Origin: a virus | IMG/VR virus record: IMGVR_UViG_3300045988_001510 | Span: 1-6,066 of that record | Strand: one strand, 5' to 3' | DNA: 6,066 nt | In this document: positions 56-6,066 of the stretch, piece after piece | Layout of the letters: each line of letters begins with the position of its first letter | Numbering within the stretch: the first letter of the stretch is position 1 | Translations under genes and position numbers: made by a program | Notes under the pieces: model-generated | What the model was told of the DNA's origin: nothing | The model's database searches: none | The model's input: the letters and a program-made list of their open reading frames with translations, nothing else

Positions 56-426
56 ACACTAAAAAGATTCTGAGAAACACAAGGTACAGAAGCAAGCGCA
101 GTCGTATTTGCGGTAGAACTAGATGCACTAGTCATATAGTCCGTCATTTGAGTAAACGACTGTGGAAGCGCACGGGAAATCAGACGTAACGGCACAGCGT
201 AGAAATCGTAATATTCCTTAATACGGGTATAAGCAGCGGTATTTACCGGAACAGTACGGGTAAACCAATCCGAAGAAATACGATACTTAGTATCGGGAAT
301 AGCAATCTGCCAATAGCATGGCAAGATTTCACCAACCTTAGCAGTGAATAATTTCTTCGAACTTAAGTCGAAGGAAGACCGGTGAGTAGGAATCTTAGCT
401 CGGTCTAAGGGATTAAAATCACTCAT
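1..426 (-). CDS. VP1: Major capsid protein VP1 (phiX174 F / gokushovirus VP1 family), N-terminal 142 codons. It continues across the circular junction into 6011..4704.
   Basis: The ATG is at 424..426 on the minus strand. Hand translation of 426..1 gives MSDFNPLDRAKIPTHRSSFDLSSKKLFTAKVGEILPCYWQIAIPDTKYRISSDWFTRTVPVNTAAYTRIKEYYDFYAVPLRLISRALPQSF... with no in-frame stop. The RSSFDLS...G.L.P...F.AVPLRLI pattern is the conserved N-terminal signature of microvirus capsid proteins. 426 nt is exactly 142 codons, so the frame joins the 4704..6011 segment without a shift. This ORF is missing from the supplied track because it runs off the window edge. Confidence 0.9.
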   Translation of the reverse strand, partial: MSDFNPLDRAKIPTHRSSFDLSSKKLFTAKVGEILPCYWQIAIPDTKYRISSDWFTRTVPVNTAAYTRIKEYYDFYAVPLRLISRALPQSFTQMTDYMTSASSSTANTTALASVPCVSQNLFSVFLQTANAGDQPNTRDDAG

Positions 427-445
427 AATTAATTAAAATTAAAAA

Positions 446-2125
446 TTAAACCATACGATTGAATATATTATTAGCATCATTAAGAGCCTTATGTTTAATC
501 ATATCACGACAGAATGTCGCACTACGGTACCGGAGTTGCTCAAGGAGTAATACCGTCTCGCGCGAGACATTGGACAAGACATCCGTTTCGCACCCGTTCT
601 GAGGCAGCGAAAACACACAATCAGAAATGACTGGGTTGGCAGAGCGTAAGTCGAATGAATCTCGTAAACTTTCATAATCCTTTTTCTTTTCATATTCTAT
701 GCCTGTTTTAATGATAAACATAATACGACCGGAGTAAGCACTAACATCAGAACCGAAGTCAGGCAGATGCCAGTTACGGAAGAATTTATAGACATATAGG
801 AACAGCCGATATAACTTATTAATATAAGATTCAATATCGACATCGCTAGAACTGTTGCAGAACCTAGTAAGGCACCGAGAAGCATGTAATATAATCTTGT
901 CATCATCAGTAAGAATAGAGTTAACCTTAAGATATTGATAATAGATCCGAACAAGACTCAAAACTGAGTCTTGCTTGTAGTCAACGAATCCGAACTTAGC
1001 AATTCTCTGTGGCGTTCGGTGAACAGCGCAAAGAATTCGAGCAATCGCAGTAACATCGTCATTGCAAGCAGACGAGAATCGGGGCAATAAGGTACGGATA
1101 TACGACAAGGGTGGAGTGGACCGAACACTGACGCCATTGAAATTGTAGACTCTTCCGTTAACGACAGAATCGATTTTTTGCTCAATTTGCGCATAAGGGT
1201 CTTCACCTTCAACGAAATCGCAACCTTTCTCAAAGAATCCAACAGACGCTCGCGACCTGGGTCTAAATGCGCGGCATGATCGATATAACAGGGGAGAAGC
1301 GCACAAGCTGTTAACGTAACTCGCAACGTACGAGCCAGCTCCACCAACGGAACGTTGGAAATCTGAACGACCGAGTTTCCAACTCTTATCGTGACAGTAT
1401 CGTAGAACCTCGGAGACTTCTTTCGAGTTCGTGAATAATAAGAGATGATAATGCGGGCGGAAATGCACGGGTCCGTACTCACCCACAGCGTAGAAATGTA
1501 ACGTTTCATAAGAACCTAATTGTTGGAATAAATGTTTACGTAAGCGCTTAATATAATTCTGAACATCAACATAGTTCAGGAAGGGAATAAGATTATCACG
1601 ACCGTATTGCGGAGAAACGGGATAATCCGTTTTTTCAACGGCTTGCGTCTTAGTGATAAAACTACGAATAGCATCCATACTAAGAAACCAATTGTCCTTA
1701 ACAGGAACATATTTCTTAATTTCGCGGTCATACGGAACAGTACCCTGTACTTGTTCGAAAAAAATATGACGCAACATGGAGTTATCATCACATTGATACT
1801 CAGAAACAGGGATATATTTATGATATTCATCACCGAAATGGATATCTCCTGAAATACCTACAACGTCCTCATATTCACTGTGGAGGACCTTACAATTCAT
1901 AAGAGGAACATGAACATTATCATAAGTAAGAGTTACAAAATAAGAATACTTAAAAGCACTTCCAGCGGTCTTCACACGCATGGACGCTTTTTTAGCACGC
2001 TTATGGATACAATAATCGCATTGGCCACAATCCACGGCAATGCGTGCACCAGTGTAACGATTAGTAATAAACGAACGATGCTGACAATGATCAGCCGCTT
2101 TCAGTAAATCAGGAGAAAATTTCAT
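446..2125 (-). CDS. VP4: Rolling-circle replication initiator protein VP4 (HUH endonuclease, phiX174 gpA family), 559 aa.
   Basis: ATG at 2123..2125 and TAA at 446..448. Motif I is FVTLTY (aa 63-68). The HUH motif is PHYHLLLF, with the HYH codons verified at 1445..1453. The catalytic di-tyrosine motif is YVASYVNS (Tyr codons at 1328..1330 and 1316..1318), closely resembling phiX174 gpA YVAKYVNK. An N-terminal Cys/His cluster HCQH...CGQCDYCIH (2003..2089) is of the kind seen at the N-terminus of many microvirus VP4 proteins. Confidence 0.92.
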   Translation of the reverse strand: MKFSPDLLKAADHCQHRSFITNRYTGARIAVDCGQCDYCIHKRAKKASMRVKTAGSAFKYSYFVTLTYDNVHVPLMNCKVLHSEYEDVVGISGDIHFGDEYHKYIPVSEYQCDDNSMLRHIFFEQVQGTVPYDREIKKYVPVKDNWFLSMDAIRSFITKTQAVEKTDYPVSPQYGRDNLIPFLNYVDVQNYIKRLRKHLFQQLGSYETLHFYAVGEYGPVHFRPHYHLLLFTNSKEVSEVLRYCHDKSWKLGRSDFQRSVGGAGSYVASYVNSLCASPLLYRSCRAFRPRSRASVGFFEKGCDFVEGEDPYAQIEQKIDSVVNGRVYNFNGVSVRSTPPLSYIRTLLPRFSSACNDDVTAIARILCAVHRTPQRIAKFGFVDYKQDSVLSLVRIYYQYLKVNSILTDDDKIILHASRCLTRFCNSSSDVDIESYINKLYRLFLYVYKFFRNWHLPDFGSDVSAYSGRIMFIIKTGIEYEKKKDYESLRDSFDLRSANPVISDCVFSLPQNGCETDVLSNVSRETVLLLEQLRYRSATFCRDMIKHKALNDANNIFNRMV

Positions 2126-2127
2126 AA

Positions 2128-2436
2128 TTAGTTACGCTTGTCTATCACCTGCCGACGATTACGAGAGCAGAATGAAACATGAATAAATGTCGGATATATA
2201 ATAAGCTGGTCGAATGGCGAAACATTATCCGAAAAGATATGGATCATTTCAAGCAACTTACTAAATGTAGTAGAGCCATAAGGCTTAATATCAACAGCCT
2301 CGCCTACAAGGTGCTGAGAATTCGGGGCACCATTGCAAGCTTTATTCTGTTCGGGAGTACGGCGAGCACTAGTTATCGTAAAATGTACGTTAGAATACAA
2401 CAAGTACTCAAGAAAATGCATAAGAGTATAATTCAT
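2128..2436 (-). CDS. Zinc metallopeptidase, M15 family (Peptidase_M15_3 / VanY-like cell-wall peptidase fold), 102 aa. Putative endolysin.
   Basis: ATG at 2434..2436 and TAA at 2128..2130, only 2 nt before the rep ATG. ITSARRTPEQNKACNGAPNSQHLVGEAVDI followed by FIHV matches the family pattern [ST]-G-Y-R-x4-N-x3-G-G-x3-S-x-H-x2-G-x-A-x-D ... F-V-H-V, including the His-Asp-His zinc ligands. There is no N-terminal signal peptide or TM segment. The C-terminal tail is basic (SRNRRQVIDKRN). Confidence 0.8.
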   Translation of the reverse strand: MNYTLMHFLEYLLYSNVHFTITSARRTPEQNKACNGAPNSQHLVGEAVDIKPYGSTTFSKLLEMIHIFSDNVSPFDQLIIYPTFIHVSFCSRNRRQVIDKRN

Positions 2437-2516
2437 ATTCCGATAGCATTAAGAATATAACCTAAAGCAGCGGAAACAGCGCCAATCACAATTTTCCAAA
2501 TATTATTACTTTTCAT
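2433..2516 (-). CDS. 27-codon single-pass transmembrane micro-ORF (MKSNNIWKIVIGAVSAALGYILNAIGI). Candidate holin-like or membrane partner of the peptidase.
   Basis: ATG at 2514..2516, hand translated. Its TGA stop (2433..2435) overlaps the peptidase ATG (2434..2436) as ATGA. Its own ATG sits inside the last codons of ORF64 (GATGAAAAGTAA). It exactly fills the only long (69 nt) inter-ORF gap in an otherwise tightly packed operon. Its small-residue-rich hydrophobic core (G/A/S/I/V) is unlike the Leu-rich junk seen in the +1 frames elsewhere in the genome. Confidence 0.45.
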   Translation of the reverse strand: MKSNNIWKIVIGAVSAALGYILNAIGI

Positions 2517-2700
2517 CACTAGGAGTTTTAAGTTCAACAAAATCATCTTCTTCTTTAATCGAATCCACAATAACAATAAGACCCAACGGAGAAACTCGCT
2601 CAGAATAATTTCCAAGACCATCGAGAGAATTGACAATATAAGGCGAAATAACATCACGACCGGTGTTTTTGTCTTTAACTGAGATAATAAATTTCTGCAT
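2506..2700 (-). CDS. Hypothetical protein, 64 aa, mildly acidic. First ORF downstream of the predicted promoter.
   Basis: ATG at 2698..2700 and TAA at 2506..2508. The amino-acid composition is diverse and protein-like (MQKFIISVKDKNTGRDVISPYIVNSLDGLGNYSERVSPLGLIVIVDSIKEEDDFVELKTPSDEK). It is on the same strand as, and abuts, the downstream genes. I recognise no motif. Confidence 0.55.
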   Translation of the reverse strand: MQKFIISVKDKNTGRDVISPYIVNSLDGLGNYSERVSPLGLIVIVDSIKEEDDFVELKTPSDEK

Positions 2701-3148: not shown

Positions 3149-4252
3149 TTATTTACGGCCAAAGTTACCAAAACGAGCACCAGCGCCAACAACATTACCA
3201 GCACCAGCGGAAATAGCACCAAGACCACGGGAAACAGAATCCCAATAATGAGTACGGCCTTGTTTGCGAGCCAAGTCTGCACCATATTCAGCAGCTTTCT
3301 GATTCGCCATAGAAGTTTTATACTCCGTATGTTTACGAAGCTTAACATTCTTATAATCATACGTACTATCACGATATTGCAATTCATTAGAGGCGTTAGC
3401 TGCCTTAATCAAAGAGTCAGCCGTCTCGGAAGCTACACGATTGTCAATTTCCTTGCCGGAAGCTTCAGCAGAAGCAAGAATAGCACGCTGGATTTCAGTC
3501 TGTATTTGCTTCTCAGTAAGAGCACCTTGGGACTGGAGATTGGCTAAGGTTTGAGCCTTAATAAACAAATCAGCCTGTTGATTCTGATCCATATATTTAT
3601 TCATAATACGCTGAGCATCAGAATTAAGCAAAATCTGTGCTTCTTGAGCAGCAGATATACGTTCAGCAAACTGGGCGTTTTTTAAATTCTGAGCCTCGGT
3701 AGATTGGTCCAAAGCAGCAGACACACGACCCGTATCCTTATTCCAATAACCGGAAGAGCCAATAGCTAGATTCCTCCAGTTAGTAAGGCCTCTATAATAA
3801 TCAGACAAAAGAGGAGTTACCGTATCAGCCTGACGTGCACGAGAGCCTGATTCACCAGCAGAAGCCTCAGAAGCCTTAGCTTGAGCAAGGGAAGCAAGAG
3901 ACTGAAACACGCTAGAAAAATTAGGCTTATAGGCCTGCATACTAGGAACAGGAGCGGCAGTAGCAGCAGCTCCGCCTGAAGCAGGAGACCTAGAACCAGC
4001 CATAGCAGCAGAACCTTGAACAAACGGATTAAGACCACGAGAAATCATAGCGTCAGGAGAATTGTAGGCATTATTCATGCCCCACATCTGTTGCTGCCAA
4101 TCACGTTGAATTTGTGCCTGTTCTGCATTAAACGCGTTCTGTTCACGCATCATACGGAGATTAACCTTATTCTGATGATTCTGATTAACCATACCGACAA
4201 TGTTGTCGGTAAGGTTTGCAGCCGAGGAAGCTATAGCGTCAAATAGTCCCAT
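3149..4252 (-). CDS. VP2: Minor capsid / DNA pilot protein VP2 (functional analogue of phiX174 H), 367 aa.
   Basis: ATG at 4250..4252, sharing one base with the TAA of ORF146 (TAATG); TAA at 3149..3151. The N-terminal region ...NLRMMREQNAFNAEQAQIQRDWQQQMWGMNNAYNSPDAMISRGLNPF... matches the conserved pattern of microvirus VP2 proteins. It continues with an Ala/Gly-rich low-complexity segment, a long Q/A-rich helical region and a Gly-rich C-terminus. Confidence 0.85.
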   Translation of the reverse strand: MGLFDAIASSAANLTDNIVGMVNQNHQNKVNLRMMREQNAFNAEQAQIQRDWQQQMWGMNNAYNSPDAMISRGLNPFVQGSAAMAGSRSPASGGAAATAAPVPSMQAYKPNFSSVFQSLASLAQAKASEASAGESGSRARQADTVTPLLSDYYRGLTNWRNLAIGSSGYWNKDTGRVSAALDQSTEAQNLKNAQFAERISAAQEAQILLNSDAQRIMNKYMDQNQQADLFIKAQTLANLQSQGALTEKQIQTEIQRAILASAEASGKEIDNRVASETADSLIKAANASNELQYRDSTYDYKNVKLRKHTEYKTSMANQKAAEYGADLARKQGRTHYWDSVSRGLGAISAGAGNVVGAGARFGNFGRK

Positions 4253-4692
4253 TATTCAGGAGAGGCAGATGCGGAATCCGGAGACGGCGCTGCCTGTTGC
4301 TCTGCCAACATAGATTCGGCATAAGCCGATAATTCTGACTTCTCACTAGCCAATTGCTGTAAAACAGCCTGACGTTCAGACATCGTCTGACAATGACGGG
4401 AGATAACACAATCAAAGCGTTCCTCATCAGTCATACCATCCATAACAGTAGACTGAGTAGGATGCATCTGAGCAAGAATATTCTGAACATTCATATCACC
4501 AAGCAACCGGCGATATTTTTCCTGATTCAGCAAAATCTGCGTCATATCACATTGAATCAAGTCCCCATCAGGAGATTCGTCATACATAACTGTATCATAT
4601 ACAGACTGTTGATAACACGGATTATCCTCAATCAACTCGGGAACAACCTCATTTTTAATATAATCAGGGTTTTTATAAGCAAAACTTCTCAT
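4252..4692 (-). CDS. Hypothetical acidic protein, 146 aa, between VP1 and VP2. Positional candidate for an internal scaffolding (VP3-like) protein.
   Basis: ATG at 4690..4692, 11 nt after the VP1 stop. Its stop overlaps the VP2 start. Composition is protein-like, D/E/Q-rich. I recognise no motif, so the scaffolding role rests only on position and size. Confidence 0.7.
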   Translation of the reverse strand: MRSFAYKNPDYIKNEVVPELIEDNPCYQQSVYDTVMYDESPDGDLIQCDMTQILLNQEKYRRLLGDMNVQNILAQMHPTQSTVMDGMTDEERFDCVISRHCQTMSERQAVLQQLASEKSELSAYAESMLAEQQAAPSPDSASASPE

Positions 4693-4703
4693 AACAATAC
4701 AAA

Positions 4704-6066
4704 TTAATAAGGTAAACCATTTCTATCCAAGTTCTGTACGGCATATACTTGGAAATTAACATTACAGAGCAACTGGTCAAACGCAACAGAACAGTTAGCA
4801 GCATCAATTTGAGGAACGAATATAGAATTCAGCTGTTGAGGACGAACCTTCATAGACTGATAAGACCAAGCACCAGCGGAAGTCAATACTTGCCAGCCAT
4901 CAAGAGGAGCAGCCCAAGACTGATAAGCAGCACCAGCACGGAATCCAGCGTGAACGGTATCAATATTAGATTTCCACTGCCAATAACGAAGGTTATAACC
5001 AAGAGAACCGGAAACATTACGGCCTGGGTTATTCTGAAGATTCAGAGCAGGAACGGCCTGCATACCAAGCTGATCAAATGCAGGTTGCGGGAAGTCAGAT
5101 ATAGCGGTCACAGTCAACTGAGGAGCCTGACCAGTCAAATTCCAATCCAGCATAGGTACAGCATGATATACACACATAATCACCTGATGTTCAGCGCCAC
5201 AGTCATAAGTAATAGTATGTCCGGAATTACTGGATACACCTTTACCGGCAATAGAAGCCTGAGAAGAATCAGTATCAAGGTTGGTATTGACTACTTCATT
5301 AATGTTAATGACACTAGACCAACCTCCAATATAATGTGCATGGTTACCCATGTATTCGGGGGCTTTAATACCAAACTGGGCAGCCATTTGGTCTGAATAG
5401 TCCTTGCTGGAAAATTGAACTACTTCTTTCCAACGCTGGAGGTATTCTGTGGCACGGATTGAAAGGGCAGAAAGATCTGAATTAAGAACAACAGTACGAT
5501 TAGAAGAAGCAGAATTTTCGGTTTGGAGGGAAGTAGTGGAAGAAGGATTAGATACCTGCGCAGGAGTACCAGCACCAGCAGAAACAACATAAGAAGATGG
5601 CAAATCACCACGATAGACACTAGGCAAAAGAGCCACCGAACCATACTGAGAAGAAGGAAGCATACCCATAAAGTAGTCTTTCGGATAGTTAGCATAGCGA
5701 AGTTGAACCATGTCCGTAACCAATCCAATATTACCAGCACCGGACCAATAGTCTACATTATAGGCATAAGCCTTATGCTTTTCCCACTGAGAGTTACTGA
5801 AGAAATCATAATAGATTTTCTGATAAGCAAGGAACGGAAGAGCATTGACAGTCTGCGAAGTCTGATAAACCAAAGGGTTATCAGCGTCACCAAGGGCATC
5901 AACACCTAGATATTTCTTAGTAATAGCAGCCTTACCTGTATTTTTAGACTCAATCATAGAACCATAACCAAGCATATCAAGCAACTTACAAGAACCATAG
6001 ACAATAGGGAGGCCTGCATCGTCACGAGTGTTAGGCTGATCACCGGCATTAGCCGTCTGAAGAAAC
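4704..6066 (-). CDS. VP1: Major capsid protein VP1, C-terminal 435 codons plus stop. The unique part is 4704..6011; 6012..6066 duplicates 1..55.
   Basis: The frame is open from the TAA stop (4704..4706) to the right window edge. The M listed at 5984 in the ORF track is an internal TTG (Leu) codon; the upstream residues read ...DDAGLPIVYGSCKLLDMLGYGS. 6011-4704+1 = 1308 nt = 436 codons, which with the 142 N-terminal codons gives a 577-aa protein, typical for microvirus VP1. It is the largest ORF in the genome, and its composition fits a jelly-roll capsid protein with long loop insertions. Confidence 0.9.
   Translation of the reverse strand, partial: FLQTANAGDQPNTRDDAGLPIVYGSCKLLDMLGYGSMIESKNTGKAAITKKYLGVDALGDADNPLVYQTSQTVNALPFLAYQKIYYDFFSNSQWEKHKAYAYNVDYWSGAGNIGLVTDMVQLRYANYPKDYFMGMLPSSQYGSVALLPSVYRGDLPSSYVVSAGAGTPAQVSNPSSTTSLQTENSASSNRTVVLNSDLSALSIRATEYLQRWKEVVQFSSKDYSDQMAAQFGIKAPEYMGNHAHYIGGWSSVININEVVNTNLDTDSSQASIAGKGVSSNSGHTITYDCGAEHQVIMCVYHAVPMLDWNLTGQAPQLTVTAISDFPQPAFDQLGMQAVPALNLQNNPGRNVSGSLGYNLRYWQWKSNIDTVHAGFRAGAAYQSWAAPLDGWQVLTSAGAWSYQSMKVRPQQLNSIFVPQIDAANCSVAFDQLLCNVNFQVYAVQNLDRNGLPY
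6012..6066. repeat. Terminal direct repeat, copy 2 (redundant copy of 1..55).
   Basis: Exact 55/55 identity with 1..55 by direct comparison. Confidence 0.95.

Follow-up and report, generated by a model that had tools for sequence, protein, structure and literature searches.

A conserved 27-residue membrane peptide, coupled to yet separable from an M15 peptidase, as a candidate lysis protein of gut microviruses

The most abundant phages of mammalian guts include microviruses that do not belong to the phiX174 group, and their means of host lysis is an open question. One locus that raises it lies in the 6,066-nucleotide (nt) IMG/VR record IMGVR_UViG_3300045988_001510 (the window, meaning the whole stretch of DNA analysed). 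On its minus strand, an open reading frame (ORF) of 27 codons plus stop, here called the micro-ORF (2433-2516; MKSNNIWKIVIGAVSAALGYILNAIGI), directly precedes the gene of a 102-residue peptidase of the M15_3/M15A type (2128-2436), a minimal form of such enzymes and a candidate endolysin. A sequence-only reading of this DNA had suggested a miniaturised holin/endolysin-type lysis system. Comparison with relatives bears out one part of that suggestion, since gene order and overlap are those of a coupled lysis module, and goes against the other part, an obligate pair, since each gene also occurs alone. The micro-ORF is a real gene under purifying selection. The explanation favoured here, a tentative preference held at somewhat less than an even chance, is that its product is an autonomous membrane lysis effector, lesion-forming or depolarising, having more in common with single-gene lysis proteins than with classical holins, with the peptidase as an optional, coupled endolysin.

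Evidence that the micro-ORF is a gene comes from relatives retrieved through the peptidase, 13 from GenBank and 80 from IMG/VR. An intact small ORF ends at the peptidase start in 91 of 91 peptidase-bearing loci with enough upstream sequence. The conservation that the sequence-only reading put up for checking holds across these loci and fails in mar63 and phiHBP1, which keep the peptidase without a micro-ORF. Two sequence types occupy the position. Type A follows the pattern M-x4-[IVLF]W[KR]-x2-IGA-x-SAALGY[IV]L[NS]-x-[ILF]G[ILVG] and has a GTG start in two genomes. Type B, present at the same locus in Dulem 236/257, bajarodmic 410/1134 and mar62, follows MK[SA]ETKSK[IVL]W[SA]AII[AS]A-x-VSL[LF][TS]… (for example MKSETKSKIWSAIIAAAVSLLTSIAQIFS) and differs from type A at most helix positions. 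Of the 20 core codons, compared over 83 unique type-A DNA sequences, 19 show variation at their third position, nine at their first and two at their second; third positions are free and second positions nearly fixed, and the amino-acid sequence itself is therefore selected. In frame, the ratio of nonsynonymous to synonymous substitution rates (dN/dS, Nei-Gojobori) is 0.08, whereas the two shifted frames give 1.4 and 8.6. This is the strongest constraint in the region, compared with 0.20 for the peptidase and 0.25 for ORF64, the small gene upstream. Mean pairwise amino-acid identity is 0.91 for the peptide (0.935 for its helix core), 0.81 for ORF64, 0.79 for the downstream replication initiator Rep and 0.75 for the peptidase.

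These figures decide against the idea that the ORF is non-functional as a protein and serves instead as a translated leader feeding the peptidase start, or as a conserved DNA or RNA element. That idea draws on the very short length of the ORF and on its lack of annotation in all 13 GenBank records inspected, but the three-periodic substitutions and an in-frame dN/dS of 0.07-0.08, against more than 1 in other frames, effectively refute it. The ORF is also kept where no peptidase follows for it to feed, and hardly any credence is left to such a role. The micro-ORF forms the tail of a longer open frame of 126 codons (2433-2813), which was rejected as a gene: upstream of the ATG at 2516 this frame has a dN/dS of 0.94, against 0.25 for ORF64 in its own frame, and a further ATG 10 codons upstream is likewise not conserved. 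An apparent ORF64-peptide fusion (P0179) proved to be a frameshifted long-read assembly. Two other entries (P0165 and P0167) apparently have ORF64 fused in frame to the micro-ORF; both come from short contigs.

At 84 nt, the gene falls under the default minimum of 90 nt in Prodigal. In Dulem 226/238/243 (L005, L007 and L008; locus 1438-1500), the peptidase is given a 21-codon N-terminal extension, which was rejected because it is not conserved and meets stops in other genomes. It is micro-ORF DNA read in another frame, and therefore an annotation artefact that hides the micro-ORF. A homologue search whose query was a tandem of two natural peptide variants, and whose E-values are only indicative, matched 313 public protein clusters; among the 120 listed, the sources are small, mostly ~6-kb contigs or bear Microviridae names. 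The public entries are 29-40 residues long and are labelled 'hypothetical protein [Microviridae sp.]' or 'uncharacterized membrane protein', and no paper describing the 27-residue peptide was found in the open-access literature. One 24,732-bp Logan contig (SRR29466483; L133, ~9878-12224) has only the micro-ORF, peptidase and Rep in common with the window, at 81% identity. Its flanks carry double-stranded DNA phage-like dUTPase, D5_N/DUF5906 primase-helicase, T5orf172 and Bro-N genes and neither VP1 nor VP2, and the contig is either a chimeric assembly or a microvirus module within a larger element.

The micro-ORF belongs to a tightly packed gene chain, and the junctions given for it in the sequence-only reading all hold. 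Its ATG (2516-2514) sits within the end of ORF64, with an 11-nt overlap, and 69 nt separate the ORF64 stop from the peptidase ATG. At the ATGA overlap (2433..2436, minus strand), the TGA of the micro-ORF (2435-2433) shares bases with the ATG of the peptidase (2436-2434), and the Rep ATG (2125) follows 2 nt past the peptidase stop. The junction reads TATGAA in nearly all of 71 IMG/VR genomes and TGTGAA, with a GTG peptidase start, in two; an ATGA or GTGA overlap is retained across ~80 genomes, essentially all relatives. Type-B relatives have either a stop, one codon and then ATG, or the ATGA overlap. An overlap of this kind is a signature of termination-reinitiation coupling, and translation of the two genes may be coupled in vivo. 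A frameshift or readthrough that would fuse peptide and peptidase, giving the enzyme an anchor like that of signal-anchor-release (SAR) endolysins, was rejected: there is no conserved slippery sequence, and the relative frame varies, with a -1 overlap in type A, an in-frame arrangement (stop plus one codon) in the type-B Dulem and bajarodmic genomes and an ATGA overlap in mar62. One relative (L048, IMGVR_UViG_3300029238_000092) has part of the micro-ORF/peptidase junction duplicated over 36 nt (…AATGCTATCGGATTATGA repeated), at a point ~36 nt ahead of the peptidase ATG. Its micro-ORF stays intact, and the upstream ATGA-overlapping start would add 12 residues to the peptidase.

The product of the micro-ORF is predicted to be a single-pass membrane peptide with its N-terminus inside. 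Its only charges are K2 and K8, near the N-terminus, and it ends (…NAIGI-stop) within a hydrophobic helix of residues 9-27 (2436..2492, minus strand; IVIGAVSAALGYILNAIGI) that runs to the C-terminus. The Kyte-Doolittle mean of this helix is 2.05 over 19 residues (threshold ~1.6), and together with the purifying selection it agrees with the membrane-type peptide of the sequence-only reading. Hydropathy alone is no proof, because hydrophobic out-of-frame ORFs are common in these T-rich genomes; the proof is conservation. Small and polar residues (G12-S15-A16-G19-N23-G26) form a stripe within a 240-340 degree arc of the helical wheel, with bulky aliphatics on the other face, and a one-sided stripe of this kind is typical of helix-helix packing. 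Compared with holins, the peptide presents a mixed picture. It has the one transmembrane domain (TMD) that is the minimum for a holin on the Kyte-Doolittle scale, and marginally so on the Hessa scale, and it lies just upstream of the candidate endolysin gene in the window and ~80 relatives. The 27 residues include no hydrophilic, charged C-terminal cytoplasmic tail, however, and co-occurrence does not bear out dependence on a partner endolysin, each gene being seen without the other. The peptide has no match in Pfam (E up to 1) or PHROG (E up to 0.1), and matches no described holin family.

The downstream enzyme is more readily placed. It matches Pfam PF08291 (Peptidase_M15_3) with E=1.5e-9 and 38.4 bits, above the gathering cutoff of 23.2, with residues 18-87 on model positions 42-107 of 108, and PHROG 894 'endolysin' with E=7.9e-15. 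The zinc-ligand motif H42-x6-D49 (SQHLVGEAVD; 2290..2313, minus strand, with the H42 codon at 2311-2313 and the D49 codon at 2290-2292) holds the residues S40-Q-H42-L-V-G45-E-A47-V-D49, and a third predicted ligand, H86, lies in the motif TFIHVSF (codon 2179..2181, minus strand). An alignment of 14 diverse microvirus homologues, the most distant at 42% identity, shows no change at H42, D49 and H86, and neither does one of 35 close homologues; R26, S40, Q41 and D76 are invariant in the 14-homologue alignment too. Membership of the M15_3 (M15A) zinc peptidases is thereby established at the sequence level, as the sequence-only reading had proposed from the M15 signature and the downstream histidine. 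A profile of the 14-homologue alignment also matches two LAS/M15 enzymes in the PDB, the T5 L-alanyl-D-glutamate peptidase (2MXZ, the T5 endolysin; E=4e-4) and the Streptomyces albus Zn D-Ala-D-Ala carboxypeptidase (1LBU; E=0.019), in an alignment of the H-x6-D region that covers ~40 residues only. The AlphaFold2 model has a mean predicted local distance difference test (pLDDT) score of 85.7, with residues 25-50 at 68-74, and Foldseek finds many 'Peptidase M15A' matches for it among the predicted models of BFVD, of moderate quality (E from 5e-5, template modelling (TM) score 0.5-0.6).

The peptidase carries no signal or transmembrane segment, again in line with the sequence-only reading. Its highest 17-residue Kyte-Doolittle mean is 1.0, its first eight residues include no K or R, and residues 4-14 form a predicted amphipathic helix; the N-terminal signal-anchor-release domain of SAR endolysins is absent. 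An enzyme with no export signal needs a membrane breach to act. At 102 residues the protein is trimmed, missing ~40 N-terminal residues of the 130-170-residue homologues in cells and double-stranded DNA phages. Its C-terminal tail varies among relatives, which leaves the suggestion that a cationic tail might help at the outer membrane without support. Cutting peptidoglycan as an endolysin is a candidate role for the enzyme. In a search of 185,579 species genomes for prophage copies, its best non-microvirus homologues were 41-43% identical (nearest range 37-43%), mostly from Bacteroidales.

The gene itself is already labelled 'peptidase' in dozens of GenBank microvirus records, and the caution in the sequence-only reading that M15-like microvirus ORFs may not be new was justified. 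For M15_3 peptidases that they reported from 11 Alpavirinae/Gokushovirinae genomes, Roux et al. 2012 (PMC3394797) proposed an endolysin role and argued for horizontal transfer from Bacteroidetes (or their phages) and other hosts. Kirchberger et al. 2022 (PMC9239249) treated the peptidases as lysis-associated accessory genes and explicitly omitted overprinted genes. The genes in both papers belong to the same PF08291 family and the same kind of phage as the window, but the papers deal with the enzyme only and include no 27-residue membrane peptide. Roux et al. noted an adjacent 'unknown ORF' in five of their 11 cases, the sole sized example being one of 153 codons.

Whether the two genes need each other can be judged from genomes that have only one of them. 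IMG/VR was scanned for DNA able to encode IGAxSAALGY, which gave 118 stretches, and 80 whole contigs were examined. The peptidase lies directly downstream in 71 of these, one is cut by the contig end, and eight (L142, L174, L179, L189, L195, L198, L211 and L219; 8/79) lack it and are otherwise intact; a tblastn search (E up to 10) for the peptidase anywhere in the eight returned noise only. Their micro-ORF has a dN/dS of 0.067. It is kept under selection without the peptidase, and therefore works without the enzyme. The peptide ends in …IL[SN]AIGV in seven of them and in …ILSSFGG in L195. The micro-ORF is then followed by a T-rich spacer of ~52 nt (~50-55 nt; TTGATTTTATTATTTATATTTATATTTATTGCC.TTTCAGGCTCTTGGTTAT), which is non-coding because its indels are not multiples of three and which may be a promoter, an origin or a deletion scar, and by a Rep whose N-terminus is near-identical to that of the window. 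On a neighbour-joining tree of Rep, drawn with no support values, the eight are scattered among peptidase-bearing genomes, and the enzyme is therefore gained or lost freely. The peptide ending and spacer that they share despite this scatter indicate either that a module without the peptidase has been exchanged through recombination or that the enzyme was lost more than once. These eight relatives thus show the arrangement of single-gene lysis, a small membrane peptide and no muralytic enzyme, which the window does not.

This pattern tells against an obligate holin-endolysin pair, in which the peptide would time and gate the release of the peptidase and neither would lyse alone. Such a pair would explain the gene order, the ATGA coupling and the enzyme without a signal sequence; the same order is found with a two-TMD holin-like gene in Bacteroidales prophages, and both genes are present in 71 of the 79 micro-ORF genomes. 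It is nonetheless very unlikely, given the eight genomes in which the micro-ORF alone is under selection, the scatter of these peptidase-less genomes on the Rep tree, and mar63 and phiHBP1, which have the peptidase only. The peptide also lacks a cytoplasmic C-terminal tail and a consistent dual start, and even the smallest holins known to us are more than twice as large, which counts against the pair as well.

The interval between ORF64 and Rep is a variable accessory slot. Its contents range from the micro-ORF alone, the micro-ORF with the peptidase, or the peptidase alone, to a small lipoprotein-like ORF or nothing obvious. Fast-evolving lysis genes show slot variability of this kind. Dulem 263 (L261, 1107-1298) and Dulem 244 (L263, 847-1044) have no peptidase and carry, in the ORF64-Rep neighbourhood, an ORF of 63-65 amino acids whose hydrophobic N-terminal segment closes with a lipobox-like VQSC. 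Such ORFs may encode small lipoproteins and are a further candidate for a lysis or membrane gene. No equivalent peptide is present in Dulem 266 and 252, Dipodfec 446 or phiHBP1, and the surroundings of more distant M15 peptidases in microviruses (L135-L141) yielded nothing but spurious hydrophobic ORFs that are out of frame.

A slot that accepts unrelated inserts is also what would be seen if the peptide had a membrane role outside lysis, such as superinfection exclusion or the anchoring of replication or assembly, and the peptidase had merely been inserted in the one permissive place before Rep. The persistence of the peptide without the peptidase, its position next to the core genes Rep and ORF64 and its lack of homology to any lysis protein in the Pfam and PHROG searches fit this picture. 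The genomes just named that lack an equivalent peptide show, however, that it is not a core replication or assembly factor, and retention of the overlap even with a GTG start suggests selected co-expression. Phages also need a lysis function, and no other candidate for one is visible in the peptidase-less genomes. A role outside lysis is accordingly judged quite unlikely.

The preferred explanation, a self-sufficient lysis peptide with an optional enzyme, combines these observations. A coupled lysis module is reasonable because of the gene order, the conserved overlap and the enzyme that has no export signal. Within it, the peptide is taken as self-sufficient and the enzyme as optional because the peptide persists alone, is more conserved than the enzyme and lacks holin hallmarks. 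The short basic N-terminus would lie in the cytoplasm and the single helix would span the inner membrane up to the C-terminus, making the peptide the core lysis effector of the lineage. Late in infection, it would accumulate in the membrane, self-associate through its Gly/Ser/Asn face and breach or de-energise the membrane, like the C-terminal transmembrane segment of MS2 L or a very small holin. In the enzyme-free phages, the peptide alone would be enough to trigger lysis. In the others, a horizontally acquired, pared-down M15A peptidase would have been placed directly downstream; ribosomes ending at the peptide TGA would restart at the overlapping ATG, so that the cytoplasmic enzyme would be made in step with the peptide. 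The enzyme would meet murein only after the peptide had damaged the membrane, and would then cut peptide stems and speed or complete lysis. Very short membrane-active sequences have precedents: 25 residues from the C-terminus of MS2 L, made as a synthetic peptide, dissipate the proton-motive force (Goessens 1988, cited in bioRxiv 10.1101/2023.10.16.562596), and functional lysis genes or candidates of ~25 codons occur in single-stranded RNA phages (PMC7693330).

Several observations weigh against this explanation. A simple Hessa-scale sum gives +1.5 kcal/mol, making the helix only moderately hydrophobic. Its near-invariance is unusual for lesion-forming holins, which diverge quickly, and would better fit binding to a specific host protein. 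We know of no precedent for a single 27-residue helix making holes for an 11.7-kDa enzyme. The genome mar63 has a trimmed, signal-less peptidase that is ATGA-coupled directly to an ORF64-like gene, with no membrane ORF; in the sister genome mar62, a type-B micro-ORF is present and overlaps the peptidase start as ATGA. Similarly, phiHBP1 (PV598014), cultured on Bacteroides fragilis, has a peptidase and no micro-ORF. A signal-less peptidase that occurs without the peptide in these two genomes must therefore be able to act or be released in some other way. Lastly, the AlphaFold2 model has no significant match among solved LAS structures: a Foldseek search against the PDB gave nothing with E<0.2, LdcB ranking 31st with a TM score of 0.33.

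The near-invariant helix brings in an amurin-type mode of action, in which the peptide would act as a 'protein antibiotic' whose helix blocks a specific, conserved enzyme of the inner membrane (MraY, MurJ or the like) that helps to supply peptidoglycan precursors, as phiX174 E and LysM do, with the peptidase as an optional booster after rupture. Lysis would then result because cells go on growing while their wall synthesis is halted. Characterised Microviridae, namely phiX174 and its relatives, use the amurin strategy, a point in favour of this view. Constraint on the peptide (core identity 0.935, dN/dS 0.08) is tighter than that on Rep, the peptidase or ORF64, as expected of docking onto a conserved host protein, and its presence alone in enzyme-free genomes is the defining situation of single-gene lysis. 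On the other side, the peptide resembles neither E nor LysM in sequence and matches no PHROG or Pfam family, and tight coupling to a signal-less muralytic enzyme is unlike any known amurin. The type-B peptide MKSETKSKIWSAIIAAAVSLLTSIAQIFS, divergent at most helix positions although at the same locus, also argues against one rigid docking surface. Blockade of a host enzyme is thus held to be unlikely, though by no means negligible. Known amurin-type examples, a further point in its favour, are single-TMD peptides of 37-91 residues as described in PMC12506998 and a bioRxiv abstract.

Comparison with characterised systems sharpens these differences. phiX174 E (91 residues, blocks MraY), LysM (37 residues, blocks MurJ) and MS2 L (75 residues) are likewise tiny single-TMD proteins that lyse without a phage muralytic enzyme, and their size range overlaps with that of the peptide once the candidates of ~25 codons from single-stranded RNA phages (PMC7693330) are counted in. 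None of these single-gene lysis proteins has sequence similarity to the peptide and none is coupled to an endolysin gene; the 27-residue peptide, for its part, is overprinted on another gene for 11 nt only. Within the microviruses, Ebor (Tainavirinae) likewise combines, in a single-stranded DNA genome, a muralytic enzyme and a very small predicted membrane protein. Its peptidoglycan hydrolase Gp7 was verified by zymogram, matches PDB 6SSC in HHpred and is called a lysozyme as purified protein; the host is alphaproteobacterial (PMC11980548). Ebor Gp1, a 45-residue membrane protein predicted by TMHMM and assigned no role, lies six genes from Gp7, and conservation and coupling of the two were not analysed in that paper (PMC11980548).

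Double-stranded DNA prophages of Bacteroidales (Tannerellaceae, Parabacteroides) offer a closer parallel in gene order. In these, a holin-like ORF of 65-68 amino acids with two TMDs (L095 5573-5780, L106 1377-1581, L114 5564-5762 and L117 5579-5780; conserved …LVMAILLVVGGIVLIFSGFWVAPEGE…FGEVSTFAGALFGVDYSYK…) lies directly upstream of a homologous M15_3 peptidase of ~150 residues; at 37-41% identity, these peptidases are the closest cellular relatives of the enzyme. Both cassettes place a small membrane-protein gene just upstream of a signal-less M15_3 peptidase, but the prophage protein has two TMDs and a charged tail, like class II holins, and no similarity to the 27-residue peptide. The microvirus arrangement therefore copies the canonical order with an unrelated, far smaller partner. 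At other Bacteroidales loci, the peptidase is preceded by a single-TMD coiled-coil protein or itself has an N-terminal hydrophobic segment.

No peptidase is mentioned in the paper on phiHBP1, which was the first Bacteroidota microvirus to be cultured (PMC13064476). Its genome (L266) nevertheless encodes, as g1 (84-488, minus strand), a 134-residue M15-type peptidase that is annotated as hypothetical and contains …GGVSTSQHLLGCAADI…FIHVS and SQHLLGCAAD. This gene directly follows g2 (490-654, minus strand), an ORF64-like gene of 54 amino acids. Compared with the window, phiHBP1 has the order Rep-g2-peptidase-VP1, a full-length peptidase and a related Rep, and the one Bacteroides record that the Rep search brought up is very likely this phage.

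The window as a whole is a circular microvirus genome written on the minus strand, on which all genes lie. An exact 55-nt terminal direct repeat (1-55/6012-6066) is the assembly overlap of a circular contig, which makes the true genome length 6,011 nt. The genes follow one another as VP1, a 146-residue protein, VP2, ORF64, micro-ORF, peptidase and Rep. VP1 (~577 residues, N-terminus MSDFNPLDRAKI…) starts at 426 on the minus strand, crosses the junction and ends at 4704; the 146-residue protein (4252-4692) and the pilot protein VP2 (3149-4252) are on the same strand. ORF64 (2506-2700, minus strand) is the first link of the packed chain, its last 11 nt overlapping the micro-ORF start. Its product (MQKFIISVKDK…IVIVDSIKEE…) belongs to a small-protein family and has no match in the Pfam or PHROG searches; the dN/dS of 0.25 found when the gene is read in its own frame rises to 0.94 and 2.9 when it is read in the others. 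All relatives that were looked at have a homologue of it ahead of the slot, among them distant ones (…VSIQSK…D.VIIIS…) and phiHBP1, where it is g2. Rep (446-2125, minus strand) is a VP4-like replication initiator of 559 residues that matches Pfam REP_ORF2-G2P (E=5.9e-15) and PHROG 942.

The nearest public genomes are faecal microviruses of dog, human and lemur, namely MG945572 (87%), OP549867 and the Dulem viruses. The phage looks like a member of the Alpavirinae/Bacteroidales-associated group, and less like a gokushovirus, the type to which the sequence-only reading referred, because of its 559-residue Rep, these faecal relatives and the Rep homologue in a Bacteroides phage record.

The peptide is so far the strongest candidate for what bursts the host cell in this large set of gut phages. 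The enzyme half of the module has been known since 2012, and the conserved, coupled yet separable 27-residue peptide is, as far as found, undescribed. Better conserved than any other protein of the region and found in hundreds of public clusters, it is a concrete and synthesisable candidate for a lysis trigger. The natural series of genomes with peptide only, peptide plus enzyme, and enzyme only lends itself to dissecting each part, and phiHBP1, grown on Bacteroides fragilis, makes such experiments feasible. There is also a lesson for annotation, in that an 84-nt gene was overlooked and several GenBank records wrongly extend the peptidase across it. A bolder proposal, which earns a modest minority of belief, is that the peptide is a stand-alone lysis protein whose helix blocks a conserved step of Bacteroidales envelope synthesis, the peptidase being a dispensable add-on swapped by recombination. 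If true, this would be the first lysis gene identified in Microviridae other than the phiX174 group, and no DNA phage would have a smaller one; the peptide would also offer a new 'protein antibiotic' against a dominant gut phylum and reveal a new vulnerable step in the Bacteroidales envelope.

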